The notes: a model not told the origin generated them from the sequence alone. Positions 3,043 to 52,315 are shown, counted from the first letter of the stretch. The stretch: DNA of 52,315 bases from Minisyncoccota bacterium (GCA_031972855.1 DALYDY010000005.1:1-52315); one strand, 5' to 3'. Translations and numbers: made by a program.

Positions 3043-6000
3043 ATGTCTCAAAATCAAGAAAATAAAAGTAAATCTGCAAACGCACTTCCGCAAGTTAGAG
3101 AAGGCTCTAACGCGGCACAGCGCGAAGAAGAAGTTTTAAAATTCTGGAAAGAAAATCAGATTTTTGAAAAGTCTGTAGAGAACCCTGCTGGTAGTAAGCC
3201 TCGCGCTGACTACGTATTTTATGACGGACCACCATTTGGTACAGGACTTCCACACTACGGACACTTGCTTGCAGGTACTATCAAAGATGCTTTTCCACGC
3301 TATCACACAATGAGAGGTGAGTCTGTTCGTCGTACTTGGGGATGGGATTGTCATGGTCTTCCTGTGGAGAATCTTATTGAAAAGAAACTCGGACTTAATA
3401 CTAAGAAAGATATTGAAGAATACGGTGTAGATAAATTCAACACAGAAGCTTGTAATAGTGTTCTTGAATTTAGTGATGATTGGAAAAAGATTATTCCGAT
3501 GACTGGACGCTTTGTGGATATGGAGCAGGACTACAAAACAATGGACGCTACATATACAGAGAGTATTTGGTGGATATTTTCTGAACTCGACAAGAAAGGA
3601 TTGATCTATCAAGGATATAAACCAATGCATCTATGTCCACGCTGTGAGACAACACTTTCAAACTTTGAAGTGACTCAAGGATACAAAGACATTACAGATA
3701 TTTCTGTATATGTAAAAATGCAAATTAAGAATGAAAATACATACTTCTTGGCTTGGACTACAACACCTTGGACTCTTCCTGGGAATGTTGCACTCGCTGT
3801 TGGGAAAGATATTACATATGTATATATAAAAATAAAAGATACAGACGTAGGTGACGCTCAATTTATTCTTGCAAAAGATAGAATTGAAAATGTTCTAAAA
3901 GGAAAAGAGTACGAAATTATAAAAGAAGTGAAAGGTTCTGATCTTGTTGGTATAGCTTACGATGCGCCTTTTGATTATTACCAAAAAGATAACAATCTAG
4001 AAAATCATGAAAGAGGTTGGAAGGTGTGCGCGGGAGAATTTGTAACTTTGGATGCTGGTACTGGTATTGTGCATATTGCACCAGCTTTTGGTGAAGACGA
4101 TATGAAGCTTGGTCAATTAGAAAAGCTTCCGTTCGTTCAACACGTGAAGACTGACGGACACTTCAAAGAAGAGGTAACTCATTTTGCTGGGATGCAAGTG
4201 AAGCCAAAAGATAATCACCAAGCGACAGATATTGAAGTTATAAAATATCTCGCACACAATCATCATCTTTTTGAAAAGGAAAAAATAATTCACTCATATC
4301 CACACTGCTGGCGTTGTGATACTCCACTTCTAAACTACGCTTCAACATCGTGGTTTGTTGAGACAACAAAATTGAAAGATAAGCTTATAGCTGCAAACCA
4401 AGAAGTGACTTGGATTCCAGGACACGTGAAGGATGGACGTTTTGGAAATTGGCTTGAGAATGTTCGTGATTGGGCTATATCTCGTAGTCGTTATTGGGGA
4501 GCTCCACTACCTGTATGGTTTGGTGAAGAATCAAATAAAAAGTACGTTATAGAGAGTGTTGAAGAACTAAAGAAGTACACAAAGAAGTCAGGGAATAAAT
4601 ATTTCGTTATGAGGCATGGAGAGGGCGAGCATAATGTCCTTGATATGTGTAGTTCAAATAAAGACAACCCTCATCATCTTACAGACTTGGGAATTGAACA
4701 TGTTAAAACAAGTTCAGAATTTCTAAAAGATAAAAACATTGATATTATTATTCGTTCTCCATTTGTTCGCACAAAAGAGACAACTAAAATAATTTGTGAC
4801 GAGCTTAGTTTCAATGAAGATAATGTTATAGAAGATGAGCGTATAGCAGAATTTAATTTTGGTGATTTCAATCTGCGCCCATTTGAAGAATATTTGAGTT
4901 ATAGACAAGGTCATGAATATGACATGGATTATGTTATCCTGGGAGGAGAAAGTCTTCAGCAAGCGAAGAATCGCTTTGCAGAATTCTTGTATGATATAGA
5001 AAAAAGATTTGAAGGAAAAAATATTCTTGTAGTAACTCATGGTATTGGTTTTCAAGTAATACCTTCTATAATTTCTGGTGCAACAAAAGAAGTTTCAGGA
5101 CATATTTTAAGAAATAAATTTAAGAAAATTCCAGATGCTTGTATTGAAGAATTTGAATTCGTTCCTCTCTCTCATAATTCTGATTACGAACTCGATCTAC
5201 ATCTACCATACATAGATAGAATAGAACTTGTAGATAATGGAGAGAAGCTTATTCGTACAAAAGAAGTGTTTGACTGCTGGTTTGAATCAGGAGCAATGCC
5301 TTATGCTTCAATCCACTATCCATTTGAGAATAAAGAATTATTTGAAACACAATTCCCAGCAGACTTTATTGCAGAGGGAATGGATCAAACTCGTGGATGG
5401 TTCTACAGTCTTCTAATTCTAGGTGTAGCACTCTTCGATAAGAGTCCTTATAAGAGAGTGGTAGTAAATGGAATTATACTTGCAGAGGATGGACAGAAAA
5501 TGTCTAAGAAGCTTAAGAATTATCCAGACGTTACTGAGGTCTTGGAGAAATATGGAGCAGACGCGCTTCGTTACTATATTCTTTCATCACCTGCTGTGAA
5601 GGGGGAAGAGCTTCGTTTTTCTGAAAAAGATTTAGCACAAATATCAAGTCGTGTTGTAGGTAGACTTCTCAATGTATTTTCTTTCTATGAACTTTATAAG
5701 AAAGATGATATTGATTTAGAAATACAAAGTACTAATGTGCTTGATCAATGGATACTGGCGCGTTCATATCAGCTTCTTTCTGAAATAGAAAGTGGAATGG
5801 AAATATATGAATTAGATAAAGCTGTGCGTCCGATAGATTTGTTTGTAGATGATCTATCTACATGGTATCTTCGTCGTTCACGTGACAGACTAAAAGATGG
5901 AGATGGTGAAGCTGTTGCTACTCTCTATACAGTTCTCAAAACTCTCTCTCAAATGATTGCACCGTTCGTGCCATTTATCTCTGAGTATATTTGGTTGAGA

Positions 6001-6537
6001 TTGAAATCTGAAAATTCAGCAGAATCAGTACATCTGTCAGCGTGGCCAATAAAAGGCACTGTTGATGAAAAATTAATTGAAGAAATGGTAAGTGTTCGCG
6101 AAATAGTAACTGTAGGTCTAAAAGAAAGACAAAAGGTGAATATTCCTGTAAGACAGCCACTCTCTAAAATAAAAATTAAAACTGAAAATCTAAAGAATGA
6201 ATATCAAGAAATCATAAAAGATGAGCTTAATATAAAAGAAATTTGTATTGAAAAAGATATTGAAAATGATATAGAGTTAGATATAGAAATTACTCCCGAA
6301 CTCAAAAAAGAGGGAATGTATCGTGAACTCGTTCGCTCTATTCAAGATCTAAGAAAAGAAAAAGGCTTAAATCCTTCAGATAAAATAAATCTCTTATTGA
6401 GTGAGAATTCTAAAGTAATTGTAAATGAGTATCTGGAAGATTTACAAAAAACAGTTGGAGCAGAAAGTGTAGAATTCAATGCAATAGAAGGTAAAGAAAT
6501 TAAGATTGACGAAGAAATATATTTTATAAATTTATAA
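3043..6537 (+). CDS. ileS: Isoleucine--tRNA ligase (IleRS2 type) with an inserted histidine-phosphatase domain
   Basis: FYDGPPF...PHYGH, GWDCHGLP, WTTTPWTLP, RDWAISRSRYWG, DQTRGWFY and KMSKK motifs; insert carries RHG, SPFVRT and VTHG. Confidence 0.97.
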   Translation: MSQNQENKSKSANALPQVREGSNAAQREEEVLKFWKENQIFEKSVENPAGSKPRADYVFYDGPPFGTGLPHYGHLLAGTIKDAFPRYHTMRGESVRRTWGWDCHGLPVENLIEKKLGLNTKKDIEEYGVDKFNTEACNSVLEFSDDWKKIIPMTGRFVDMEQDYKTMDATYTESIWWIFSELDKKGLIYQGYKPMHLCPRCETTLSNFEVTQGYKDITDISVYVKMQIKNENTYFLAWTTTPWTLPGNVALAVGKDITYVYIKIKDTDVGDAQFILAKDRIENVLKGKEYEIIKEVKGSDLVGIAYDAPFDYYQKDNNLENHERGWKVCAGEFVTLDAGTGIVHIAPAFGEDDMKLGQLEKLPFVQHVKTDGHFKEEVTHFAGMQVKPKDNHQATDIEVIKYLAHNHHLFEKEKIIHSYPHCWRCDTPLLNYASTSWFVETTKLKDKLIAANQEVTWIPGHVKDGRFGNWLENVRDWAISRSRYWGAPLPVWFGEESNKKYVIESVEELKKYTKKSGNKYFVMRHGEGEHNVLDMCSSNKDNPHHLTDLGIEHVKTSSEFLKDKNIDIIIRSPFVRTKETTKIICDELSFNEDNVIEDERIAEFNFGDFNLRPFEEYLSYRQGHEYDMDYVILGGESLQQAKNRFAEFLYDIEKRFEGKNILVVTHGIGFQVIPSIISGATKEVSGHILRNKFKKIPDACIEEFEFVPLSHNSDYELDLHLPYIDRIELVDNGEKLIRTKEVFDCWFESGAMPYASIHYPFENKELFETQFPADFIAEGMDQTRGWFYSLLILGVALFDKSPYKRVVVNGIILAEDGQKMSKKLKNYPDVTEVLEKYGADALRYYILSSPAVKGEELRFSEKDLAQISSRVVGRLLNVFSFYELYKKDDIDLEIQSTNVLDQWILARSYQLLSEIESGMEIYELDKAVRPIDLFVDDLSTWYLRRSRDRLKDGDGEAVATLYTVLKTLSQMIAPFVPFISEYIWLRLKSENSAESVHLSAWPIKGTVDEKLIEEMVSVREIVTVGLKERQKVNIPVRQPLSKIKIKTENLKNEYQEIIKDELNIKEICIEKDIENDIELDIEITPELKKEGMYRELVRSIQDLRKEKGLNPSDKINLLLSENSKVIVNEYLEDLQKTVGAESVEFNAIEGKEIKIDEEIYFINL

Positions 6538-19784: not shown

Positions 19785-19842
19785 AATAAAACACAAATAA
19801 AAACGGAACCCATATGGGTTCCGTTTTTATTTGTGTTTTATT
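19785..19842. terminator. 58-bp perfect palindrome acting as bidirectional terminator between rpsR and efp
   Basis: aataaaacacaaataaaaacggaacccat|atgggttccgtttttatttgtgttttatt, no loop. Confidence 0.8.
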
Positions 19843-20425
19843 ATTTTGCTCTCTCTACGTATTCAGAGTTTTCTGTATTTATAACAATTATTTCTCCCGC
19901 ATTAATGAATAGGGGAACATTGATACTTGTTCCATTTTCAAGAACAACTTGTTTGTTTCCTCCTGTAGCAGAATCTCCTTTGATCGATGGTGGAGCTTCT
20001 TTAACTGTGAAGTTTACTTTTATAGGTAGTTTAACGCCTATAATCTGTTCTTCGTCATCGTATTCAAACATTAGTGCAATCGCTGTACAGTTATCTTTTA
20101 GAAATTTCTTTGTATTTCCATCCATTAGATTATCTTTTACTATAAAGCGATTTTTTGGATCTGTTGGGTCACAGAACCAGTATTCACCTTTGTTTGCATA
20201 TAAAAATTTGATATCTTTTTTTGATACCTCAGCTTCTTCTATTTGGTCTGATGCATGAAATGTTGTTGTAACAGCGCGTCCTGAGATGAGGTTACGCATC
20301 TTTACTTGGTTTTGAGGCTTTCTTTGTTGAGTGCGGGCAACGTGAGAATCTGTTACTTCATAAGGTTCTCCCTCATAAACTACATATTTTCCTATTTTAA
20401 TTTCGTTGTAATCGAGTAGTGACAT
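19841..20425 (-). CDS. efp: Elongation factor P with a non-canonical tip loop
   Basis: IKIGKYVVYEGEPY, FLY, KQVVLENG and VPLFINAGE..INT; start at MSLLDY. Confidence 0.93.
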   Translation of the reverse strand: MSLLDYNEIKIGKYVVYEGEPYEVTDSHVARTQQRKPQNQVKMRNLISGRAVTTTFHASDQIEEAEVSKKDIKFLYANKGEYWFCDPTDPKNRFIVKDNLMDGNTKKFLKDNCTAIALMFEYDDEEQIIGVKLPIKVNFTVKEAPPSIKGDSATGGNKQVVLENGTSINVPLFINAGEIIVINTENSEYVERAK

Positions 20426-20500
20426 AATAATAAAATTTAATGAATACATGAACAGTATATCAAAATTTCCTATTATTTCAAGGGCTTTTATTTTATATAT

Positions 20501-20529
20501 TTGACATTAACATTAATATGTTTTATAAG
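20501..20529 (+). promoter_or_regulatory. Sigma70 promoter upstream of the PP2C-kinase operon
   Basis: TTGACA 20501-20506, 17-nt spacer, TATAAG 20524-20529. A second candidate, TTGCGT-17-AATAAT (20541-20569), overlaps operator box 1. Confidence 0.6.
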
Positions 20530-20557
20530 ATAAAATAATATTGCGTCTTAATTTAAA

Positions 20558-20576
20558 TAGTGTAATAATAACACTA
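20558..20576. promoter_or_regulatory. Operator box 1 (putative NrtR site)
   Basis: TAGTGT-AATAATA-ACACTA, perfect arms, GT-N7-AC core. Confidence 0.8.
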
Positions 20577-20583
20577 AGTAATA

Positions 20584-20602
20584 TAGTGTAGTAAATACAT
20601 TA
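20584..20602. promoter_or_regulatory. Operator box 2 (putative NrtR site)
   Basis: TAGTGT-AGTAAAT-ACATTA, one mismatch, tandem to box 1. Confidence 0.72.
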
Positions 20603-20643: not shown

Positions 20644-21480
20644 ATGAAAAACAAATTTGAAATTAAAGGTGGATCGATTCCTGGAGTTGATCACACATTA
20701 CCCGGTGCGCCGGGTTGGAAAAACAATCAAGATGCATTTTTTGTTTTACAAAATGAAAAAATAACACTTGGTATTGTTGCTGATGGTTGTTCAGAAGGTG
20801 AACATACTGAAGTTGGTTCAAAATTAGCAGTACGACTACTTGGATCTCTAATAATGCGTTTGTATCCTCGTTATGAAGATTCGTTATCTTTGTCACTAGA
20901 ACAAAACACAGAACCATACTTCTTTACTCGCATTAGAGAAGACTTACTTTCTACTCTTCGTCTATTAACAAATCAGATGGGAGATAGTATGACAGAAATT
21001 GTTAAATCATATTTTTCCTTCACTGTTGTTGGTATTCTTGTAACTCCTAAGCGAACATATTTTTTCTCTATTGGTGACGGATTAATTAGTGTAAATGGTA
21101 ACCATAAAAATTTGGGTCCATTTCCAAAAAATGAACCGCCATATCTTGGATTTTCATTACTTGGGGAAAATATTCCTTTTGTAGTAGAACAACATGATAC
21201 TGAAAAAATAGAATGCGCTCTAATTGCTTCTGATGGTATTGATTACTTAATGAAGGCAGAAGGAACCAAAAATCCAAATGGTGTATGGACAATTGAAAAC
21301 ATATCTCTTTTTTGGGAAGATGATTCTTTCTTAAAAAATAGTGACGCAATTCGTCGTAAACTCGCTCTTTATAATACTGAGCATGTTACAAATGAAGGTG
21401 GGTCCCCGTGGATTAAGAAAGGTCAATTAAAAGACGATACAACACTTATTGTTGTTAGAAAAATTTCACAAACAAATTAA
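20644..21480 (+). CDS. PP2C-like protein phosphatase (YegK/PphC-like)
   Basis: G.SIPG..H, NNQDAF, IVADGCSEG, SIGDG, IASDG and DDTTLIVV motifs. Confidence 0.88.
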   Translation: MKNKFEIKGGSIPGVDHTLPGAPGWKNNQDAFFVLQNEKITLGIVADGCSEGEHTEVGSKLAVRLLGSLIMRLYPRYEDSLSLSLEQNTEPYFFTRIREDLLSTLRLLTNQMGDSMTEIVKSYFSFTVVGILVTPKRTYFFSIGDGLISVNGNHKNLGPFPKNEPPYLGFSLLGENIPFVVEQHDTEKIECALIASDGIDYLMKAEGTKNPNGVWTIENISLFWEDDSFLKNSDAIRRKLALYNTEHVTNEGGSPWIKKGQLKDDTTLIVVRKISQTN

Positions 21481-21490
21481 TACGTAGAAA

Positions 21491-22990
21491 ATGAAACTTA
21501 CTATTAATAAAAATACAATCGAGACTAATAGTTTAGGCTTAATTGGAACAGGAGGAGAAGCAGATATTTATCAGTTAAATCAGACACATGTACTAAAAGT
21601 TTTTAAAGATTCTAGGCATCCTGATTATACTGGTAATATTAATGCTCAAGCTGGTGCTCGCGAAAGAATTCGTGTTCACCAAGAAAAGTTACTACAATTT
21701 CCTAAAGGACTTCCATCACAAGTGATAACCCCTTTGGAAATAGCATACGATGTTAGGGGTGCTGTCAGAGGATATATGATGAAACTTATACCTCAAGGGG
21801 TAACGCTTTGGCAATATTCTCAACCAGGCTCATATGTTCGTGGATCTGATGAAGGAAAAATAATATCTTTTCTTCGTTCTATGTATGAAGTTATTATTCA
21901 AATTCACTCAAAAAAAATTGTGATAGGAGACTTCAATGATTTAAACATACTTGTTGATCAAGTATTTCATCCTTGGTTTATTGATTCAGATAGTTATCAA
22001 TTTGGTAAATTCTTGTCAAAAACTTTTGATGAACGTTTTGTTGATCCGCTTTTGTGTATTACCGCAACAGTGGCTACTCATCCTGATATTTGTTCTGATG
22101 GGAAAAGTCATATTGTACTCAGTAAACCACACGGAGAGAAAAGTGACTGGTACGCATTTGCTTCAATGGTCATGCAGACTCTTTGTTCTGTTGGTCCTTA
22201 TGGTGGTGTATATCGTCCAAAATTAAATACGTCGTCTGTGTCACAACACTTACGTCCTATGCACCGCATCTCTATACTTCATCCTGAAGTAATCTATCCT
22301 AAAAAAGCACGCTCTCTTGATTTGTTGCCAGATAATCTTGTTTCGTATTTTGAAGATGTATTTAAAAATGATGTTCGTGGTATTATGCCAAAATCACTTT
22401 TAGATACACTTCGTTTTACAACTTGTACTACTTGTCATACAGTTCACGCTCATGCTGTTTGTCCAAATTGTAACAAACACGTTTTACAACCAATTACTTC
22501 TATTTTTAGAGGTAAGGTTAATGCAGAACGTATTTGGAACACTCGAGGAATTATAGTTACTGCTTCATATGACCATGAATTAGTGTATATCTATCATGAC
22601 GGTATAAGCTATCGCCATAGTAATGGAAATGAAATTCTTCGTGAATCTTATAATCCGTTCATTACATTCTATGTGTCAGGATCTTACACAGTTTATGTTC
22701 GTGGAAATGTACTTTCAGTATTTCACTCTGATAATACTAGAGCAGATTATCCTATTGATGGTAAAACAGGAAATAGGGTAGCTCTCTCTGGTAATAGATT
22801 AGTTTGGATTTCCGATGGGGTTATTACGACAGAAGAAAATATTCTTGGCGTAACAACAACAAAAAAACTTGGAACAGTTCTTGGTGGAAACACCGATATT
22901 TGGACAAGTGACAATGTTGGGTTTGGAAAGTATCGCGCAGGTGAAATAGTTAGATATTTTATTTTTTCTCCAACATACAGTTTTGAATGA
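21491..22990 (+). CDS. YegI-like Ser/Thr protein kinase with CxxC..CxxC Zn ribbon and beta-rich C-terminus (N-terminal part of a frameshifted gene)
   Basis: IGTGGEADIY, VLKVF, IVIGDFNDLNILV, FIDSDS and CTTC...CPNC. Confidence 0.85.
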   Translation: MKLTINKNTIETNSLGLIGTGGEADIYQLNQTHVLKVFKDSRHPDYTGNINAQAGARERIRVHQEKLLQFPKGLPSQVITPLEIAYDVRGAVRGYMMKLIPQGVTLWQYSQPGSYVRGSDEGKIISFLRSMYEVIIQIHSKKIVIGDFNDLNILVDQVFHPWFIDSDSYQFGKFLSKTFDERFVDPLLCITATVATHPDICSDGKSHIVLSKPHGEKSDWYAFASMVMQTLCSVGPYGGVYRPKLNTSSVSQHLRPMHRISILHPEVIYPKKARSLDLLPDNLVSYFEDVFKNDVRGIMPKSLLDTLRFTTCTTCHTVHAHAVCPNCNKHVLQPITSIFRGKVNAERIWNTRGIIVTASYDHELVYIYHDGISYRHSNGNEILRESYNPFITFYVSGSYTVYVRGNVLSVFHSDNTRADYPIDGKTGNRVALSGNRLVWISDGVITTEENILGVTTTKKLGTVLGGNTDIWTSDNVGFGKYRAGEIVRYFIFSPTYSFE

Positions 22991-23396
22991 CAATATTACA
23001 TTACCTCCAATTGCTGGAAAAGTAATTGAAAGTAATGTTTATTTCAGTCAAACATATATTTGGTACTTTATTCTTGTTCAAGAATTAGGTATTCAAAAAG
23101 TACATACATATCTTATTGATTCTAAAACAGGAACACTTATTGCAACAGCTGTAGGCCAAGCAAATGATGGGTCGTGGATAGGGTCAACTAAAGGTAAACT
23201 TGCCTCAGGTAATTTTCTTCTTTCACCATCAGATGATGGTATTGTAAGAATAGAAGCAAATGGAGGAACACTTCATGTTGCTAAAAAATTTCCTGACACG
23301 TATGACATAGTTGATTGTCATACAAATCTATTTCCAGGTAAAACAGGGCTTTCAATTATTTCTTCTCAAGAAATATGGCAAGTCTCAATTAAATAA
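22983..23396 (+). CDS. Probable C-terminal continuation of the kinase in the +1 frame
   Basis: Only a TTG start, no ribosome-binding space, 8-nt overlap at AGTTTTGAATGA. Removing one T fuses the two frames (...YSLNDNITLPP...). Confidence 0.6.
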   Translation: MNDNITLPPIAGKVIESNVYFSQTYIWYFILVQELGIQKVHTYLIDSKTGTLIATAVGQANDGSWIGSTKGKLASGNFLLSPSDDGIVRIEANGGTLHVAKKFPDTYDIVDCHTNLFPGKTGLSIISSQEIWQVSIK

Positions 23397-23430
23397 AACA
23401 ATTCAAAAAACACTTTTAATTTTAAACAAA

Positions 23431-24549
23431 ATGTCAAACAAAGTTTTTCATGGGTATGATCCCAAAAACGCAGAAGACTTCTCTTACAATCCCAATATGG
23501 CATTGGTACAAGAAGCAGCTCTCGCATACGCAAGAGTTAATAATTTACATCCAGGAACAAGCGATAAAATAAAGCTTGCATTGCTGTTGATTGATGCACA
23601 ACGTGACTTCTGTCATAAAGAAGGAACGCTTTACGTAGGTGGCCGAACTGGTGATGGTGCTATAGATGATTCAAAGCGAATTGCTGAGTTCATTTATAAC
23701 AATGTCGGAATCATTTCAAAAACCATTGCAACACTCGATACGCACTTTCCGTGGCAGATTTTTTTCTCTAATTTTTTCGTAAATCGAAAAGGAGAAGAAT
23801 TACAGCCTCATACATTGATCGATGTAGCAGTTGATAATGGCCGTGACATTCTAGTTAATCTTGATTTGGCAGGAAATTTGCTTAACAGTGATATTCTTCC
23901 TAATCCAAAGATTGCTGGTGAATTTAAGGTTAATCCAGCATGGCTACACAGTCAATGTTTGCATTATTGTAAAAGCTTGAAAGATCCAAACAGTGGTCGT
24001 TCGAAGTACACATTGTATCTGTGGCCGTTACATTGCCTTATTGGCAGTATTGGACACACTCTTGTTGGTGTTATTGATGAAGCTCGTCAGTTTCACTCTT
24101 TTGCTCGTTCTTCACAGCCAGAAATTGAAATAAAAGGAGGTAATCCTTTAACTGAAAATTACTCAATCGTCCAACCAGAAGTGTTGACTCTTTTTGATAA
24201 TTTAAACAGTCCTATTGCACAACGCAATGTTTCATTTCTAAAGCAGTTACTCAACTATGATATGGTTGTAATTGCCGGACAAGCTTCAAGTCATTGTGTG
24301 GCTTCATCAATCGATGACATCCTTGCAGAGATTAATGCTAAAGATCCTTCTTTAGCAAAGAAAGTATATATCCTTCGTGATTGTACTTCCGCAGTGGCTG
24401 TCCCTGATGGGAATGGTGGATTTTTTGCAGATTTTACTGATCAAGCAGAAGCAGCTTTCAAACGTTTTGCTGATGCTGGTATGAATGTTGTAAACTCTAC
24501 CGATCCAATTAGTACTTGGCCTGGTGTTGCTAGTACTTTATATTCATAA
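23431..24549 (+). CDS. Cysteine hydrolase (isochorismatase/nicotinamidase superfamily), long form
   Basis: LLLIDAQRDF, TLDTH, WPLHC and AGQASSHCV motifs; start at MSNKV. Confidence 0.9.
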   Translation: MSNKVFHGYDPKNAEDFSYNPNMALVQEAALAYARVNNLHPGTSDKIKLALLLIDAQRDFCHKEGTLYVGGRTGDGAIDDSKRIAEFIYNNVGIISKTIATLDTHFPWQIFFSNFFVNRKGEELQPHTLIDVAVDNGRDILVNLDLAGNLLNSDILPNPKIAGEFKVNPAWLHSQCLHYCKSLKDPNSGRSKYTLYLWPLHCLIGSIGHTLVGVIDEARQFHSFARSSQPEIEIKGGNPLTENYSIVQPEVLTLFDNLNSPIAQRNVSFLKQLLNYDMVVIAGQASSHCVASSIDDILAEINAKDPSLAKKVYILRDCTSAVAVPDGNGGFFADFTDQAEAAFKRFADAGMNVVNSTDPISTWPGVASTLYS

Positions 24550-24558
24550 CACTTGCCC

Positions 24559-24591
24559 AGTGTGACAAAGCTTTAAAAACTTTGTCACACT
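24559..24591. repeat. Intercistronic hairpin between the hydrolase and vWA genes
   Basis: agtgtgacaaag-ctttaaaaa-ctttgtcacact, no strong U-tract. Confidence 0.6.
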
Positions 24592-24636
24592 TAATAAAAT
24601 AGTTTTAAAATCAAACAACAATTAAATAAAAAAAAC

Positions 24637-25422
24637 ATGTCAAACAACACAACACTGCTCAATGATGCAGTAAATAATGGAAATCTTTCACCTGATGCTT
24701 TAGTTGCAATGAATAATATTCCTGATTTAGGATTAGCATTGCAACATGCAATGGGGGTGAATATTGATGACATTAATTCCAGTGAAATTACATTGGTAGC
24801 AATGCTCATCGATGATTCAAGCTCAATCAGAAGTGGTGGAAATGAACGCATTGTTTGTGATGGCCATAATATGGTTATCGAATCTATTAAAGATTCCAAA
24901 CAAAAAAACGGCGTTCTTATACTAACAAAGTATTTGAATGGAAAAGTTTTATGTCCTTGGGCTCCTATAGATCAGGCGGTGATTATGGACTCACAAAATT
25001 ATCACGCAAATGGTAGTACACCACTTTATGATCAGACCGTTGAATTCCTTGCATTAATTGCCGCGAAGACCGAAGAGTTTGAGCAAATGGCCGGTGTTCC
25101 TGTTCGTAGTATAAGCCTTATCATTAGTGATGGTGCTGACTATGGTTCATACACACAAAAGCCTCATAATGTATCTGCTGTAGTTAAGAGTATGTTAAAA
25201 AGTGAAAAGCATATCATTGCAGCTATGGGTATCGATGATGGCTCTACTGATTTCAAAAAAATATTCTCAAGTATGGGATTAGAAGATTCATGGATCCTTA
25301 CACCAGGTAATTCTGAAAAAGAAATTCGTGCATCATTTAGAATGTTTTCTCAGAGTGCTGTCCGTGCAAGCCAAAGCGGTGCAGGATTTAGCAAAACCGC
25401 AATGGGTGGTTTTGGAAATTAA
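24637..25422 (+). CDS. von Willebrand factor A domain protein (YegL/TerY-like)
   Basis: MIDAS motifs LIDDSSSI, NGSTPLYD and IISDG. Confidence 0.85.
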   Translation: MSNNTTLLNDAVNNGNLSPDALVAMNNIPDLGLALQHAMGVNIDDINSSEITLVAMLIDDSSSIRSGGNERIVCDGHNMVIESIKDSKQKNGVLILTKYLNGKVLCPWAPIDQAVIMDSQNYHANGSTPLYDQTVEFLALIAAKTEEFEQMAGVPVRSISLIISDGADYGSYTQKPHNVSAVVKSMLKSEKHIIAAMGIDDGSTDFKKIFSSMGLEDSWILTPGNSEKEIRASFRMFSQSAVRASQSGAGFSKTAMGGFGN

Positions 25423-25455: not shown

Positions 25456-25531
25456 AAAGCGATGATATATTCATCGCTTTTTTTATTTTTAATAAATAAA
25501 CAATAAAAAAAGTCCCGCATTAGAGCGGGAC
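25456..25531. terminator. Back-to-back terminators for the vWA operon (+) and pncAB (-)
   Basis: aaagcgatga/tcatcgcttt plus T-run; gtcccgc/gcgggac preceded by an A7 run. Confidence 0.7.
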
Positions 25532-25544
25532 CTGTATGAGGTCC

Positions 25545-27449
25545 TTATACCTCACATTTTTTACTGTAGGTTTCGTGATACTGCAGAGCTTTTTTGTAAG
25601 CCTCTACTGTTTCAGGGTGACCCATGGCTTTGGCGGCATTGTCTGAAATTTTCACACAATATTTGCCGTCAATTGAGTAGGGTTTCGAAACGATTGATAA
25701 CTGCTTCAATCCCAAATTGTTGGTCAACTTTGTGCCCCAACCAAATGATATTTTTGTTTGATCAGCAAATTTATTTGTTATATTGATCATGTCAGGAATA
25801 TCGAGCCCGTCACTTGGGACCGACATTTTTCCTTTAGGATCAATATTAAATGATTTGTACTTTTCAAAAAGACTTGGAATTGCTTCCATTGGATCTTTTG
25901 AATCAATCCTAAAGCCTTTCCAATTATGGAAGACTTCTTTTGGAAGAAACTTGAAAGCAAAATCTGTACCATATGTATCAGGTAGGGAAATTGATAATGC
26001 ATAGCTATATTTTTTCCACCACGATTCATGTAGTTTTATGAATGGTTTTTTTATTGATTCGATTGAACCATCAAATTCCATTGCAACCATTCCCATAGAA
26101 AGTTCGTGGGCACAAGTACCAATCGGCATCAAGTCATACTTGGAAGCCAACGATACTTTTGAAGTACCGACAAACTGCGAACCCAATTCTTCAGCACAGC
26201 GTGATATAACAAAATCGTGCCACATAGTTCCAAAGCTTCGGCGATTACCGAAGTCTGAGAAGAATATTTTTGGATTATCTTTGATAATCTTAATATTTTT
26301 ACTCAAACGTTGAATACCTTCCGCATATACCGCCTCACGTTCCATCCGGGACATTTTTTTGAGTTGTGCTCGGTAATAAAGACCATTCACAATTCTTAAT
26401 GTTGGAATTTCTGCATGTTTTGAGTGTATCCACGGGCCCTTGGTTCTTATATCAAGCTGGCCGTTTTCAATGCCGAACGTAGGTTCGGGAATCCGCAAGT
26501 TTGCCAAATGATCCAAATATGGTTCATCAAACATTCTTGTTTCGTATTCATTTACACCACGTAAGTAATGTAACTCCGTCCTGGTTGCTTGTAATGCTAT
26601 AACATGAGCATATTCAGCCATAAAATCATCTTCAGTGATGAATTGGGCTAAATGTACATCTTTGGTACGGTTTTTGAATCTCCATTCCATTTCAGCATTA
26701 GCTAGGTGTGGGTGATCAAACAGAAAATTTCCCATTGAAAATTTGTAGAAGTCATCTTCCAAAACAGAAGTGACTATTGGCTCCTCGAGCATTGATTGGT
26801 CGAGCAAGTCCAAGTTTAGAGGAGGTAATCGTTTGATTGGTTTTTCTAAATGATTTCTTTTGATTGGTTGCTCACAAACATCAACGGTTGTTGTTTGGAT
26901 TGCGCCACTCATTTTCATCAAATGAATAGCGTCTCTTTCATCGTTCATCTTTACATTCACTGCTGCCATTGCATCAACTAGGAAAAAGGTTTCAAAACCA
27001 TTTTTAATGGAATCTAAAACTGTTGCTTTTACGCAATAGTCTGTAGCGAGGCCTCCAATATAAACTGTTTTAATTCCTTGGCTTTTTAGGAAGTCTTCAA
27101 GGTTCATACCTTGTCCTTCTACTGTACCGTGTTCATCGAATGCAGAATATGCATCCTCGTTACCCATACCTTTTGAGAGTATGTATGCAGTTGAAGGGAA
27201 GATTAGATCTTTGTGAAATTCGGCACCATGCGTATTTTGCACACAATGCTCTTTCCATTTTATGAAATGACTTGTATCTTTTGGATGCCAGTCACGAGTG
27301 AAAATTATGAGCCAGCCACTTTTTTGGGCATACTCAATCATTTTGTTCCAAGTGCCGATTAAAAGATCAGCACCTTCTACTCCCAAGGCTCCGCCAGGGA
27401 AGAAGTCTTTTGCAAGGTCAACCAAGACCAAAGCTTTCTTTGTTTTCAT
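25545..27449 (-). CDS. pncB: Fusion of nicotinamidase (PncA) and nicotinate phosphoribosyltransferase (PncB)
   Basis: N-half VDLAKDF, TRDWH, HCVQ, SKG and GLATDYCV; C-half DDFYKFSM, DFGNRR, GTCAHE, PDTYG, RIDS, SDGL, FGWGT and KISDN. Confidence 0.92.
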   Translation of the reverse strand: MKTKKALVLVDLAKDFFPGGALGVEGADLLIGTWNKMIEYAQKSGWLIIFTRDWHPKDTSHFIKWKEHCVQNTHGAEFHKDLIFPSTAYILSKGMGNEDAYSAFDEHGTVEGQGMNLEDFLKSQGIKTVYIGGLATDYCVKATVLDSIKNGFETFFLVDAMAAVNVKMNDERDAIHLMKMSGAIQTTTVDVCEQPIKRNHLEKPIKRLPPLNLDLLDQSMLEEPIVTSVLEDDFYKFSMGNFLFDHPHLANAEMEWRFKNRTKDVHLAQFITEDDFMAEYAHVIALQATRTELHYLRGVNEYETRMFDEPYLDHLANLRIPEPTFGIENGQLDIRTKGPWIHSKHAEIPTLRIVNGLYYRAQLKKMSRMEREAVYAEGIQRLSKNIKIIKDNPKIFFSDFGNRRSFGTMWHDFVISRCAEELGSQFVGTSKVSLASKYDLMPIGTCAHELSMGMVAMEFDGSIESIKKPFIKLHESWWKKYSYALSISLPDTYGTDFAFKFLPKEVFHNWKGFRIDSKDPMEAIPSLFEKYKSFNIDPKGKMSVPSDGLDIPDMINITNKFADQTKISFGWGTKLTNNLGLKQLSIVSKPYSIDGKYCVKISDNAAKAMGHPETVEAYKKALQYHETYSKKCEV

Positions 27450-27487: not shown

Positions 27488-27506
27488 TAGTGTCTTTATT
27501 ACACTA
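27488..27506. promoter_or_regulatory. Operator box 3 (putative NrtR site) overlapping the pncAB extended -10
   Basis: TAGTGT-CTTTATT-ACACTA; minus-strand TGA-TATAGT at 27511-27503. Confidence 0.8.
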
Positions 27507-27591
27507 TATCATAATGTAGATTTAGTGTATATATTTTTATTTATTATAAACCATATATTTAAATAAGTCAATAGTAGTATAATTATCTATA

Positions 27592-27610
27592 TATTGTATT
27601 TATTACACTA
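27592..27610. promoter_or_regulatory. Operator box 4 (putative NrtR site) at the nadD promoter
   Basis: TATTGT-ATTTATT-ACACTA directly before TGA-TATACT (27613-27621). Confidence 0.72.
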
Positions 27611-28211: not shown

Positions 28212-28664
28212 TTATTGTTGTATCCACAAAACAGCTTCTTCTAAAGTTTTTGCTTGGTGTATTTTATATCGTTCGCAAATAATATCTATATTTCCTTTTC
28301 TCCAAAAACCTTCAGGACAGACCACAATCATTTTATTGGGTTTTGTACCAAATAAACCAAGTTCTAAAAGACTGATAGGGGATTTTGTTTTGGGATCAAA
28401 ATATAAAATAACTTTATGTGCTTGTTCAAGTCCATCAAGTTCCCAATTTACTTGATTATAAAATTCATAATTTTCTTTTTCTTGTTTCCAATCGCTGTTC
28501 CAAGAATCTCGTCTAGGATTAAATATTGTCCACTCTGTATCTTTTAGCATATAAGTCACACGATCTTGCCATTTTTCTGCTATATCCATTTCGATACTTC
28601 CAGCAAGGAATACTGAAGGATGTGTTTGGTCTGGAATATTTTCTGGTGGCTTAATCATTCTCAT
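28212..28664 (-). CDS. Nucleoside 2-deoxyribosyltransferase-like protein
   Basis: VFLAGSIE, W.Q, FNPRR, WEL..L..A and SPISLLELG. Confidence 0.8.
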   Translation of the reverse strand: MRMIKPPENIPDQTHPSVFLAGSIEMDIAEKWQDRVTYMLKDTEWTIFNPRRDSWNSDWKQEKENYEFYNQVNWELDGLEQAHKVILYFDPKTKSPISLLELGLFGTKPNKMIVVCPEGFWRKGNIDIICERYKIHQAKTLEEAVLWIQQ

Positions 28665-28681
28665 AATACTAATTTTATTAT

Positions 28682-29347
28682 TTAAAAATTTTTTATTTCT
28701 AGTTCTTTTACTGCACGAGTATAAAGCTTTGCTGGACGTTGTCTCATACCTGTTAGAACGTGTTTTGTTTCTTTTATAAAACCAAGTTGATCTATTTGTT
28801 TTCTAAAATTTCTTTTATCAAGTTTTTTGTTTAGAATAACTTCATATACTTCTTGTAGTTGTGATAGTGTAAAGAGTTTTGGTAATACATTTATACCTAT
28901 TGTTGTGTACTCAAGCTTGCCTCTAAGACGTTTAATACCATAATTAATAATATCTTTATGGTCAAATGCTAGTTGTGGAAGTTTTTTTATATCGTATAGT
29001 GCTGGGGCTTGAGCCTGACTATTTTCTTTTGAATAAGTAAGTGGAGAGGGAATAAGAGCTATATAGGTAATTGAAAAAACTGGTCCACGTGGATCACGGC
29101 CTGGTGTATAAAAAGTATATAACTGTTCAAGATATGAAGGTTTTACACCTGTTTTTTCTTCTAGTATACGAATGGCTGCAATTTCTGCTGTTTCGCCAGC
29201 TAGTAAATAACCTCCAGGAAGTGCATGTATACCTTGGAATGGTTTACCTTCACGCTCAATCAGAAGCACTTTTAAGGCTCCGTCTTCTATTGTTGCTAGT
29301 ATTATATCTACAGTCACGGTTGGATTTAAAAACTGTTTTTCTTTCAT
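28682..29347 (-). CDS. nrtR: NrtR-family regulator (Nudix plus winged HTH)
   Basis: PTVTVD, LPGG...RILEEKTG, LEQLYTF...RDPRG, LAFDH, FTLSQLQ.VYE.IL, DKRNFRK and RPAKLY. Confidence 0.9.
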   Translation of the reverse strand: MKEKQFLNPTVTVDIILATIEDGALKVLLIEREGKPFQGIHALPGGYLLAGETAEIAAIRILEEKTGVKPSYLEQLYTFYTPGRDPRGPVFSITYIALIPSPLTYSKENSQAQAPALYDIKKLPQLAFDHKDIINYGIKRLRGKLEYTTIGINVLPKLFTLSQLQEVYEVILNKKLDKRNFRKQIDQLGFIKETKHVLTGMRQRPAKLYTRAVKELEIKNF

Positions 29348-31304: not shown

Positions 31305-31323
31305 TAGTGTTTATAGTACACTA
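31305..31323. promoter_or_regulatory. Operator box 5 (putative NrtR site) upstream of nadE-nrtR
   Basis: TAGTGT-TTATAGT-ACACTA, 9 nt from the nadE start codon. Confidence 0.8.
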
Positions 31324-32191: not shown

Positions 32192-33178
32192 ATGAACAAT
32201 AAGGACACAATTTATGTGTGTGTTGTTGGAAACAAACATGCATTACAAAAAGAAATCATTGAAGCTCTTAAGAAGATTCACTCACAAGTTGTTGAGATTC
32301 ATAACGACATATTCCGTTTTGAAAGTGGAGAACACAAACCTGTAATTAAAGAGTCTGTTAGAAATAAAGATGTTATTGTTATCTCTACTTTGGAAGAGAA
32401 TATTGATACTGAAGTATTAAAACTTCTATTTACTATAGACGCTCTGAGACGGGCAAGTGCCAACAGAATAGATGTGCTGATGCCATACCTATATTATGAC
32501 AGGCAAGATAAAACCAGTGGTAAAAGAGAATCTATTAGTTGTGCTATTCTCGCAAGATTTTATGAATTGTGTGGTGCTAGTAGTATGACTACTGTCCATC
32601 TACATAATGAAGCAATCGAAGGGTTCTTTCATGGACCTTGTGACTCTATAGGAACTAGGAAGCTTTTTTGGAATCATCTGAAAAATTATTGCATTGCTAA
32701 AGACGAATATTTTGACCCTTCTGAATGGATGATAATTTTTCCTGACGAAGGTGCAAGTAAAATTGTTAGAGACTATGTAAAGAGAGCTGGTGCTGGAGGT
32801 TATGCTGGATTTTCAAAACAGCGAATTGTTGCAAATGATGTTGAGTGGATGGATTTTTTTGGTAAAGTTGAAGGGATGCGTTGTTTTGTATTTGATGACA
32901 AAATAGATACTGGCGGAACTTTGGTAAAAGCCGGCAAATTATTGATAGAACAAGGAGCTAAAGAAACAATAGCTGCTTGTACTTACGGATTACTAAATCG
33001 TACAGCACCTACAGATCTTCAAAATTCAGCATATTCAAAAATTTTCATTACGGATTTAATGAATATTCCAGAATCAAAACTTTTTAACAAGCTTGAGATT
33101 GTTGGAACGGCAGAATATTTAGCTGAAGTCCTTATCAAAAAACACCACGGAGAATCTCTCCGTGAGGAATATTGGTAG
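32192..33178 (+). CDS. prs: Ribose-phosphate pyrophosphokinase family protein (divergent)
   Basis: FESGE, ESVRNKDV, PYLYYDRQDK, PDEG and DDKIDTGGT. Confidence 0.9.
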   Translation: MNNKDTIYVCVVGNKHALQKEIIEALKKIHSQVVEIHNDIFRFESGEHKPVIKESVRNKDVIVISTLEENIDTEVLKLLFTIDALRRASANRIDVLMPYLYYDRQDKTSGKRESISCAILARFYELCGASSMTTVHLHNEAIEGFFHGPCDSIGTRKLFWNHLKNYCIAKDEYFDPSEWMIIFPDEGASKIVRDYVKRAGAGGYAGFSKQRIVANDVEWMDFFGKVEGMRCFVFDDKIDTGGTLVKAGKLLIEQGAKETIAACTYGLLNRTAPTDLQNSAYSKIFITDLMNIPESKLFNKLEIVGTAEYLAEVLIKKHHGESLREEYW

Positions 33179-33263
33179 TTCTTTAAAAGCCCTTTTTTGG
33201 GCTTTTTCTTTTTGGCTTATTTATGTGTTAGGATTTATATATAATAATAAATTAAATTTAATC

Positions 33264-34919
33264 ATGGCCTATCTTCTATTTCCTGGTAGACACCTTCTTA
33301 ATACAAAATTCCAAGAGACCTATTTATGGGACATTCTTCGTTTGCCAGTAGGTAAGCTTGATCTTGTTGGGCAGACATCAATTTCTTCAGAAGAAAGAAT
33401 TACTCACATAATATTTGCGGTTACATCTTCCAATCAATCCAATTCCCGTTACAATCCAATTCCATTTTTTGAAAGAGCAATTACTCTTGACCGCTTTGCC
33501 CATCAATACAAAGAAGCTCTCGATATTAGTTATCAGATAATAGGTATACCTCATTTTAATCCTACAGATAATTTTGCTTCATATATATTAAAAGAATTAC
33601 AAGAACAAGAAGAAGATATAGTTCGTCTCGATCCTTCAAATACTATTGTACTATGTTCAACTCATGCTTTGATTAAACAATATAAAGATTTGGGATTTGC
33701 AATTCTTCCTGCAGAGTATGATCTTGAAAAGAATGAATACACAAAAGAGACTCCAATTAGTACTCTAAAAAAATTCGTAAATATTGGTGAAAATTGGAAA
33801 CAAGATAATACACTGACTGATTTTATGTCCAAAGCAACAAGAGAAGTTTGGACTGATTTCCCAACAATTCCAAGAAATATTTTACGTTTGTGGAATGACC
33901 CACTTCTAACAGAGAGCGGTAGTCTTACTATTGATAGAAATTATAGTACTTATGCAATAGGTATGGGTCATCAAGTATTGCTTGATATGAAGTATAAAGA
34001 TATTAAAGGTGCTGTTAAGTCAGGGAAGATTGTTGATGAAGGTTGTGCTGATGGCGCTCTCATGGTGCGTTTGGCGGAAGATTTTCCTGATTCTGATATT
34101 GTAGGTATTGAACTTACTACAGAATTTACAGCACGTTGTCAGGAGCGTTTGCGAGCTGGAGAATTTGGCGGTACTTATGTACACTTTCATCAACGCAATC
34201 TGCTCGAGCCTATTTTTGATGAAAATAGTATAGATACAACTATTTGTAATTCTACAACGCATGAATTATGGTCATACGGTAACAAAGAAGAAAGTCTTAT
34301 TGGATATCTAAAAAATAAATACACTCAATTGCGTAAAGGGGGACGAATAGTTATTCGTGATGTTGTAGGTCCTGAAAATAAAGATCAAGAAGTTTATGTA
34401 TCTTTAAATAGAGAAGACGGTTCAAATGATGATGTTTTGAAAGATTGTAGTAGTCATCAAGAATTACAAAATCATATTACTAATCTTTCAACATATGGAA
34501 GATTTGTTAGATTCGCACAAGACTATCTTATAGATATGAGAAATGATGGACGTAGAGGAGAAGATACAAAAATCTCTTTTAGAGAAGAAGAAATTGATGG
34601 TAAAAAATACATAGTTACTACATTGAAAAATATAGTTGAATTTATGACCAAAAAAGATTATGTCGATAATTGGCGAAGTGAACTTAATGAAGAGTTCGCA
34701 TATTGGAGTTTTAGTGACTGGAAAAAAGCACTAAGCAATCACGGATTTAAAGTTATAGAAAATCCAAATGAAAAAGAAGGAGTCTCTGTGAGTTATAGAA
34801 ATGATTGGATTGTAAAGAATCGCTGGGAAGGTAAGGTTGAACTTTTTAAAAATAAAAATGGAGAACTTATACTTTTGGAATATCCTCCAACACACATGGT
34901 ATTAGTTGCCGAAAAATAA
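33264..34919 (+). CDS. Fusion of a nucleotidyltransferase-like N-terminal domain and a class I SAM-dependent methyltransferase
   Basis: LLFPGRH...IIFAVTSSN....RYNP N-terminus; IVDEGCADG motif I, GIELT and NSTTHE; start at MAYLL. Confidence 0.65.
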   Translation: MAYLLFPGRHLLNTKFQETYLWDILRLPVGKLDLVGQTSISSEERITHIIFAVTSSNQSNSRYNPIPFFERAITLDRFAHQYKEALDISYQIIGIPHFNPTDNFASYILKELQEQEEDIVRLDPSNTIVLCSTHALIKQYKDLGFAILPAEYDLEKNEYTKETPISTLKKFVNIGENWKQDNTLTDFMSKATREVWTDFPTIPRNILRLWNDPLLTESGSLTIDRNYSTYAIGMGHQVLLDMKYKDIKGAVKSGKIVDEGCADGALMVRLAEDFPDSDIVGIELTTEFTARCQERLRAGEFGGTYVHFHQRNLLEPIFDENSIDTTICNSTTHELWSYGNKEESLIGYLKNKYTQLRKGGRIVIRDVVGPENKDQEVYVSLNREDGSNDDVLKDCSSHQELQNHITNLSTYGRFVRFAQDYLIDMRNDGRRGEDTKISFREEEIDGKKYIVTTLKNIVEFMTKKDYVDNWRSELNEEFAYWSFSDWKKALSNHGFKVIENPNEKEGVSVSYRNDWIVKNRWEGKVELFKNKNGELILLEYPPTHMVLVAEK

Positions 34920-50049: not shown

Positions 50050-50187
50050 CCCTCTTGTATTCTTTGATAAAAGTAAATCACTTTCCGGACACCCATTTTG
50101 GGGTCTTTTACGTCCGAGAAAGGAGTGGTTTAATATACGATGGAAGCGGTTCCGGAGTATAACCACGACAGTAGTTTTTAAATTTCC

Positions 50188-52315
<2,128 letters not shown>

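Follow-up and report, generated by a model that had tools for sequence, protein, structure and literature searches.

A 52,315-nucleotide stretch of DNA from a Minisyncoccota bacterium (GCA_031972855.1 DALYDY010000005.1:1-52315), referred to here as the window, was analysed for a plus-strand operon at 20644-25422. The operon encodes, in this order, a PP2C phosphatase, a YegI-type Ser/Thr kinase, a long nicotinamidase-family hydrolase and a von Willebrand factor A (vWA) protein with a metal-ion-dependent adhesion site (MIDAS). The comparison with related loci revealed the full set of four genes, identically ordered, in at least 75 of 79, a recurrence that places the arrangement far beyond chance. 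Since its operators are shared with the genes of nicotinamide adenine dinucleotide (NAD+) biosynthesis and nrtR is linked to it, the cassette appears as a regular member of the NrtR regulon, and its standing as a conserved NrtR-regulon cassette is held with high confidence. The fuller reading, in which adenosine diphosphate ribose (ADP-ribose) would induce the operon, the nicotinamidase would feed PncB salvage and a phospho-switch of the TerY-P type would control it, stands in even balance.

The window has a guanine plus cytosine content of about 33% and belongs to an organism of the Candidate Phyla Radiation (CPR)/Patescibacteria type. Another NCBI assembly (GCA_031972175.1) carries the same genes, and the closest named relatives are Candidatus Nomurabacteria and Paceibacterota. 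The row of genes is flanked by efp (19841-20449, minus strand) on one side and by a convergent gene for a pncA-pncB fusion (25545-27449, minus strand) on the other. A first-pass annotation of this DNA had placed the four gene types here, and all of them were found on the plus strand where it had put them. Its description of the setting as an NAD+ island is in accordance with the genes downstream of the operon, which are the pncA-pncB fusion, nadD, NrtR, nadE, Nudix and prs genes.

Conservation of the cassette and its NrtR-type operators

The conservation of the cassette was analysed with one genome per species, the loci being found via the kinase. A relative of the kinase was detected in 445 species and the best 80 loci were taken further, 79 of which gave hits. 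The PP2C phosphatase was present in 78 of these, the hydrolase in 77 and the vWA protein in 75, with constant order and strand and with tightly conserved protein lengths. The cassette occurs in many CPR lineages, in cyanobacteria (Nodosilinea, Leptolyngbya), in myxobacteria (Myxococcus xanthus, Minicystis rosea), in Acidobacteria, in Planctomycetes and in other groups. Against M. xanthus or Nodosilinea, the hydrolase and the vWA protein of the window show 45-53% identity and its kinase and phosphatase about 35%; NrtR shows about 42% against Myxococcus or cyanobacteria. The hydrolase had been described earlier as an amidase added to a YegIKL-like module, and this description did not hold. As the cassette is conserved as a unit, the hydrolase belongs to the core of a distinct four-gene family and is not a local addition to YegIKL. 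Six of the fetched loci, exclusively cyanobacterial, have an ADP-ribosylglycohydrolase gene (PF03747) placed between PP2C and kinase (locus L043, 7209-7976; also L052, L082 and L085).

The region in front of the PP2C gene was scanned for operator motifs. The scan located a perfect palindrome with a GT-N7-AC core, TAGTGTAATAATAACACTA, at 20558-20576 and a second NrtR-type operator with one mismatch, TAGTGTAGTAAATACATTA, at 20584-20602, which is 26 bp after the first. The NrtR consensus is a palindrome with a GT-N7-AC core (Rodionov et al. 2008, PMC2330246), and the core in the window matches it. Within the window, TAGTGT-N7-ACACTA with no more than one mismatch was found only 5' of the PP2C gene, in the divergent region between pncAB and nadD (27488-27610, with a perfect site at 27488-27506 and a one-mismatch site at 27592-27610) and between the nadE-nrtR operon and the Nudix/prs genes (31305-31323, perfect). 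The palindrome scan of the whole window returned 10 sites with at most two mismatches, against 2.55 expected by chance. Across 73 related loci, the motif stands within 350 nt 5' of the PP2C gene in 49, and its density there is 2.46 per kb compared to 0.017 per kb elsewhere. Tandem pairs 20-27 bp apart were found in 23 related loci, and the operator is kept in 19 of the 31 loci that have no adjacent nrtR. A survey of gene neighbourhoods, which the first-pass annotation had proposed as a check on the NAD+ link, was run within 8 kb of the cassette and had a positive outcome: about 50 of the 79 loci have NrtR and about 20 have pncB, and nadE, prs and nadD were found in 13, 7 and 6. NrtR mostly lies directly 5' of the cassette, co-directional in myxobacteria and many CPR bacteria and divergent in cyanobacteria.

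An extra NrtR-type operator was observed just 5' of the hydrolase gene in some loci (L037 10588-10628, L067 9923-9941, L094 2572-2590, L095 8333-8351), a position which suggests that the hydrolase and vWA genes may form a separable, separately regulated unit. In the window, the presumed regulator of the cassette is encoded at 28682-29347 on the minus strand and combines a Nudix domain with a winged-helix repressor domain (NCBIfam NtrR, E 7.8e-44; Pfam NUDIX and WHD_NrtR). The convergent fusion gene belongs to the same regulon and encodes a canonical nicotinamidase joined to a nicotinate phosphoribosyltransferase (634 amino acids (aa); NCBIfam, Pfam), so that two nicotinamidase-type genes, this one and the cassette hydrolase, lie side by side. 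Between nadD and nrtR, at 28212-28664 on the minus strand, lies a gene for a 150-aa protein of the Nuc_deoxyri_tr2 family (PF15891, E 1.4e-32), a candidate nucleotide N-glycosidase which could release nicotinamide from nicotinamide mononucleotide (NMN). A large S-adenosylmethionine-dependent methyltransferase (about 550-585 aa) is encoded after prs (33162-34919, plus strand), and a Methyltransf_11 gene resembling it lies beside the cassette in an unrelated high-GC locus (L087, 1-1597, minus strand).

The limits of transcription were also considered. A consensus scan gave a promoter-like site on the plus strand, TTAACA-18-TAAAAT, at 20507-20536 just 5' of the operators, which counts as weak evidence because the regional number of such sites does not exceed the shuffled expectation. 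A terminator-like hairpin followed by a T-run lies at 25456-25480 on the plus strand, 34 nt past the stop codon of the vWA gene.

The four cassette proteins

The PP2C-type Ser/Thr phosphatase (20644-21480, plus strand, 278 aa) scored above the cut-off for Pfam PP2C_2 (E 9.4e-14). The hhalign comparison with PphC/YegK gave a probability of 96.3% (E 2e-9), the catalytic D46 of PphC aligning to D47, and the metal-binding aspartates D30, D47, D145, D197 and D264/265 are invariant. The kinase was compared with E. coli YegI in the same way and gave a probability of 98.4% (E 1e-14) over residues 17-320, a stretch that takes in the CxxC...CPxC ribbon. The relatedness of both enzymes to YegK and YegI, claimed earlier from the sequence, is thus borne out. 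PphC dephosphorylates YegI, which autophosphorylates (bioRxiv 10.1101/819920, 10.1101/303594).

The kinase gene is split in the window. Its 5' part (21491-22990, plus strand) encodes 499 aa with a YegI-like Ser/Thr kinase domain (1-305), a zinc ribbon (309-330) and the start of an all-beta domain, and its 3' part (22983-23396, plus strand) is an open reading frame (ORF) of 137 aa holding the end of that propeller-like domain. The two ORFs overlap in different frames. The DNA alignment with three public assemblies revealed a 2-bp deletion in the window, of AC within CAACACAT at 22970-22975 (about 22972), which shifts the reading frame and truncates the 5' part. All three assemblies encode an intact kinase of 635 aa; a database protein of this length (P0001) is identical to both parts and continuous across them, and all homologues have about 620-640 aa. 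The blastn comparison with these assemblies, which are from the same organism, showed one gap and three mismatches over 21.9 kb, with 99.9-100% identity otherwise. The split is explained either by a rare variant or by an error of assembly. Read-through of UGA by an alternative genetic code was considered for the 499/137-aa split and rejected, as the ORFs lie in different frames and the deletion explains them.

The alignment of the kinase family showed invariant residues in the Gly-rich loop (G19/G21/G22), K36, the GDFNDLN catalytic loop (D147, N152) and the IDxDS motif (D165), and the four cysteines C312, C315, C324 and C327 of the ribbon are likewise invariant. The ribbon had been noticed in the first reading, and it agrees with the zinc ribbon of the TerY-P triads described in PMC11090510. 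The AlphaFold2 model of the kinase (pLDDT, the predicted local distance difference test score, 88.3) consists of the kinase domain at 1-305, the small ribbon and, at 337-635, an all-beta domain with some 30 strands. Its Foldseek matches are eukaryotic-like protein kinases, and in the viral library BFVD Kelch and lactonase propellers are among the matches; because kinases dominate the PDB search, the propeller-like reading of the C-terminus is taken from the BFVD matches alone. No hydrophobic segment of transmembrane strength was detected in the kinase, the maximum 19-residue hydropathy of seven family members being at most 1.52, compared to 2.27 for YegI. The earlier description of a beta-rich extension in place of a membrane anchor stands as regards the all-beta domain and the lack of a transmembrane-level segment; it had overlooked that the two ORFs are one gene split here by a frameshift. 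A BFVD entry of 550 aa (A0A8S5RYX0, Myoviridae sp. ctNQV2) spans the whole kinase model, kinase and beta domain alike (E 1.3e-24, 15% identity), from which it follows that the two-domain architecture also exists in phage.

The hydrolase (23431-24549, plus strand, 372 aa) starts at the ATG at 23431 and not at the TTG at 23311. It carries the nicotinamidase motifs, and its top-scoring matches in the PDB profile search are the nicotinamidases of M. tuberculosis (PncA, 3pl1), Leishmania (3r2j) and yeast (Pnc1, 2h0r), the profile alignment running through the DxQxDF, WPxHC and GxAxxHCV motifs. The catalytic triad D55, K235 and C289 is invariant in 28-29 sequences and aligns to the motifs of M. tuberculosis PncA. 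The metal ligands D103 and H105 (DxH) and H201 (WPxHC) are also invariant, and the WPxHC motif aligns to PncA and to the Leishmania and yeast enzymes. A match to Pfam Isochorismatase was obtained for 16 of 29 members (best E 4.9e-6), and the comparison with the window's own PncA domain gave an hhalign probability of 50% (E 1.6e-4). The homologues are labelled 'nicotinamidase' by NCBI and JGI. By a residue-level definition the hydrolase is a nicotinamidase, with nicotinamide as its predicted substrate. In known nicotinamidases the metal site binds a free pyridine nitrogen, which favours free nicotinamide over NMN or NAD+. In the loci with pncB nearby, a canonical short PncA was found in just 2 of 19, and so in most NAD islands the cassette hydrolase is the sole nicotinamidase candidate beside pncB.

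Two variants of the hydrolase were also observed. Homologues of 589-615 aa were considered as fusions of hydrolase and vWA protein and rejected in this role, as the extra segment of about 245 aa is N-terminal, belongs to no Pfam family and is unlike the cassette and NAD proteins compared with it; it is conserved in L087 (7001-7735), L027 (9869-10543) and L058 (9926-10600). A second and somewhat shorter long-nicotinamidase paralogue lies right after the vWA gene in L020 (7814-8881), L039 (11961-13004), L044 (12062-13111) and L087 (9896-10861).

The vWA/MIDAS protein (24637-25422, plus strand, 261 aa) is extended at its N-terminus by three helices and ends in a conserved ...GGFG tail. The Pfam scan and the PDB sequence-profile search gave no match for this family, and since sequence methods gave nothing, the fold was settled by modelling. 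The AlphaFold2 model (pLDDT 91.9, predicted template modelling score 0.91) matched vWA/integrin I-domains only in Foldseek (probability 1.0, E about 1e-6). The MIDAS residues D59, S61 and S63 of the DDSSS motif, T128 and D165 are conserved in the DxSxS...T...D pattern. By its fold, the third protein of the triad is a MIDAS vWA protein, as first proposed.

Proposed working and alternative explanations

The conservation of the operators suggests that NrtR, bound to the twin TAGTGT-N7-ACACTA sites, would repress the operon. ADP-ribose, a cleavage product of NAD+, releases NrtR from DNA (PMC2330246, PMC6800001), and by analogy with these other NrtR proteins a rise in ADP-ribose upon NAD+ cleavage would free the operators in the window. 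The de-repressed cassette would be transcribed together with pncB, nadD, nadE and prs. The conserved residues and the gene context suggest that the hydrolase would convert free nicotinamide to nicotinate for entry into PncB (Preiss-Handler) salvage, by which nicotinamide would be removed as well. The kinase, the PP2C phosphatase and the vWA protein would act as a reversible phosphorylation switch of the TerY-P type, gating the nicotinamidase step or its complex post-translationally. The switch is proposed because of the homology to YegI and PphC and the strict co-inheritance of the genes, and the assignment of a specific target to it is tentative. A role against NADase attack, which the first-pass annotation had favoured, is possible; de-repression by ADP-ribose fits an attack by NADases or ADP-ribosylating toxins and ordinary NAD+ turnover alike.

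Several observations weigh against this proposal. About one third of the loci have neither nrtR nor a good operator in reach. The copies on IMG/VR contigs mostly have neither NrtR nor operator, which indicates that NrtR control is not obligatory. The window hydrolase reached 17.9 bits against Pfam Isochorismatase, below the 27-bit cut-off, it carries roughly 150 extra residues, and it may act on a different pyridine or amide compound. The window is also the exception among the NAD islands, having a canonical pncA fused to pncB, so that a second nicotinamidase is not obviously needed. The kinship of the vWA family to YegL/TerY is weak (hhalign probability 21% only), and an action of the kinase on the hydrolase or the vWA protein, suggested as possible by the first-pass annotation, is a conjecture. 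The kinase is frameshifted, and the switch may for this reason be defective in the window, unless the frameshift is a sequencing error.

The IMG/VR copies bear on a wider version of the proposal. The kinase was found on 15 contigs (L089-L103, 42-545 kb) which are classified as viral in that database and are putative huge phages, and all four genes are present at no fewer than 12 of the fetched loci. The gene set is kept there, sometimes in rotated order (vWA-PP2C-kinase-hydrolase), and several copies lie inside pncB-nadE(-nadD) clusters (L098, L101, L102). Most of the flanking genes are ORFans, and an HNH endonuclease, a Fic protein and a few PHROG matches were also observed there. A tblastn search of 50,697 GenBank phages with the cassette vWA protein and kinase gave no match. 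On the wider version, the cassette would be a self-contained, phospho-regulated module through which nicotinamide enters the rebuilding of NAD+ once NAD+ has been cleaved, switched on by ADP-ribose via NrtR in cells, and very large phages would carry an NrtR-less copy beside pncB, nadE and nadD as a counter of the Preiss-Handler type to NAD+-depleting immunity. This is conceivable and on balance rather unlikely. On a 436-kb IMG/VR contig, a gene resembling that of the major vault protein (MVP; 868 aa, MVP shoulder and repeat domains) was observed just 5' of the cassette at this single locus (L090, 1432-4038, plus strand).

The cassette could instead serve immunity or the stress response as a TerY-P-type system, in which the beta-propeller of the kinase senses an invader or toxin and the phospho-switch fires a response. 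The nicotinamidase would then be the effector, for example by draining nicotinamide so that the invader cannot rebuild NAD+, or it would give self-protection against NADase immunity. TerY-P-like triads act on their own against phages and are found alongside restriction systems (Gao 2020, Anantharaman 2012, as cited in PMC11090510), induction by ADP-ribose would follow NADase activity, and the ADP-ribosylglycohydrolase within the cyanobacterial operons is in line with such a role. The PADLOC scan of the four cassette proteins and three neighbours, in contrast, gave only sub-threshold matches, with no defence model for the cassette proteins at E < 0.001, a result that bears on the antiphage subtype and not on the triad architecture. 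The flanks consist of housekeeping and NAD-biosynthesis genes and not of defence islands, the cross-phylum identity of 45-53% and the fixed lengths are unlike those of fast-evolving defence genes, and the small CPR genomes retain the cassette. An immune or stress function is considered improbable.

An explanation of similarly low probability is the control of NAD+ consumers. Nicotinamide is a product inhibitor of sirtuins and ADP-ribosyltransferases, and its removal under the governance of the kinase would tune cycles of de-acylation or ADP-ribosylation. Yeast Pnc1 is a nicotinamidase that relieves sirtuin inhibition. The intact catalytic residues of the hydrolase suit this explanation, as does the presence in the window of a canonical PncA which already serves salvage. 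The glycohydrolase found within the operon at the six cyanobacterial loci also suits it, yet this gene is limited to one lineage. The draG operon of Streptomyces is likewise controlled by NrtR (PMC2330246). Against these, the commonest neighbours of the cassette are pncB, nadE, nadD and prs and not sirtuins or transferases.

Equally unlikely is that the kinase, phosphatase and vWA protein form a general signalling unit with targets outside the operon, serving a global response to NAD+ stress, the nicotinamidase being merely co-transcribed. E. coli YegI and PphC work without an operon-encoded effector, and the extra operator right 5' of the hydrolase in some loci agrees with a separable hydrolase-vWA unit. 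The four genes are practically inseparable, however, in about 95 loci including the IMG/VR contigs with permuted order, and such strict co-inheritance usually means a physical or functional complex. That the module is a decaying pseudogene cluster in this genome, as the 2-bp deletion might suggest, is very improbable, as the gene is intact in three independent and otherwise near-identical public assemblies of the same organism, the remaining operon genes are intact, and the deletion lies in a short AC repeat where an assembly error or rare variant is possible.

Relation to known systems and significance

The cassette was compared with the TerY-P/YegIKL triads (E. coli YegI/PphC/YegL; Anantharaman, Iyer & Aravind 2012, as cited in PMC11090510), with which it shares three co-transcribed protein types. 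The kinase domain of YegI and the Cys-rich ribbon after it both align to the cassette kinase, PphC aligns to the phosphatase including its catalytic residue, and the DxSxS...T...D MIDAS pattern of the vWA protein is kept. The triads have been hypothesised to be a metal-sensing phospho-switch. The cassette differs from them in its fixed fourth member, the nicotinamidase, and in its NrtR operators. Its kinase is soluble, with a beta-propeller-like C-terminal domain of about 300 aa where YegI has a two-pass membrane region, and it retains a catalytic-loop Asn that is absent from YegI. The gene order also differs, being yegL-pphC-(yegJ)-yegI in E. coli. No ter or restriction/processing genes were found among the window ORFs scanned, which were not every ORF, or among the genes recognised in related loci.

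The cassette hydrolase shares with the PncA/Pnc1 nicotinamidases the Asp-Lys-Cys triad, the Asp/His/His metal site, the GxAxxHCV motif and the association with pncB. It is longer (about 350-372 aa against about 185-230 aa), with an N-terminal extension of about 45 aa and a long insertion between DxH and WPxHC, and it is always encoded with the kinase, phosphatase and vWA protein. The regulator and its sites are like those of the published NrtR regulon (Rodionov et al. 2008, PMC2330246) in the Nudix plus winged-helix architecture, the GT-N7-AC operator 5' of pncB, nadD, nadE and prs, and ADP-ribose as the anti-repressor. The regulons published there contain metabolic genes together with the unknown nrtX-nrtY and the draG operon, and list no kinase, phosphatase or vWA genes, whereas CPR bacteria, cyanobacteria and myxobacteria have the signalling cassette as a regular member.

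The IMG/VR copies resemble the phage NARP1/2/3 systems in holding a gene set for rebuilding NAD+ from nicotinamide, beside pncB, nadE and nadD. The chemistry differs, NARP1 being Adps and Namat, NARP2 Nampt and Nmnat and NARP3 PnuC and NadR, with no nicotinamidase or kinase switch. NARP3 was considered as a related system and rejected on account of its PnuC and NadR composition. The operon DRA0331-0334 of Deinococcus radiodurans (bioRxiv 10.64898/2026.01.23.701218), compared by gene content, is a stress-signalling operon that likewise combines a vWA protein, a Ser/Thr kinase and a PP2C phosphatase. It has a forkhead-associated (FHA) protein and a link to DNA damage, and neither a nicotinamidase nor a link to NrtR. 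No description of the cassette was found in the searchable literature linking NrtR or nicotinamidase with PP2C, vWA or TerY genes.

Other features of the window were also noted. A 667-aa protein encoded at 66-2069 (plus strand) carries a Peptidase_S74 (endosialidase chaperone) domain, typical of the C-terminus of phage tail fibres and spikes. At 3043-6537 (plus strand) lies a gene for a class I, IleRS-like aminoacyl-tRNA synthetase of 1164 aa, in which a His_Phos_1 domain (521-673, E 4e-25) splits the halves of the catalytic domain. A 23S rRNA gene at 50187-52315 (plus strand) is preceded by protein-coding ORFs and not by a 16S gene, which looks like an unlinked rRNA arrangement. No tRNA gene was found anywhere in the window.

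Triads of vWA protein, kinase and PP2C phosphatase are widespread, and one clade of them is tied here to a nicotinamidase, to NrtR and to the ADP-ribose signal. On the wider version of the proposal, the triad would be the first of the TerY-P/YegIKL type to have its metabolic output identified. The output proposed for it is concrete and can be tested in tractable hosts, Myxococcus xanthus and cyanobacteria among them. The proposed reading would place Ser/Thr phosphorylation as a control layer over bacterial NAD+ salvage, and the cassette adds a signalling operon to the regulon of NrtR. Should the IMG/VR copies prove to be viral, the cassette also bears on the arms race of NAD+ depletion and reconstitution between phages and bacteria. 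It may also explain how the genome-reduced, salvage-dependent CPR bacteria handle nicotinamide.

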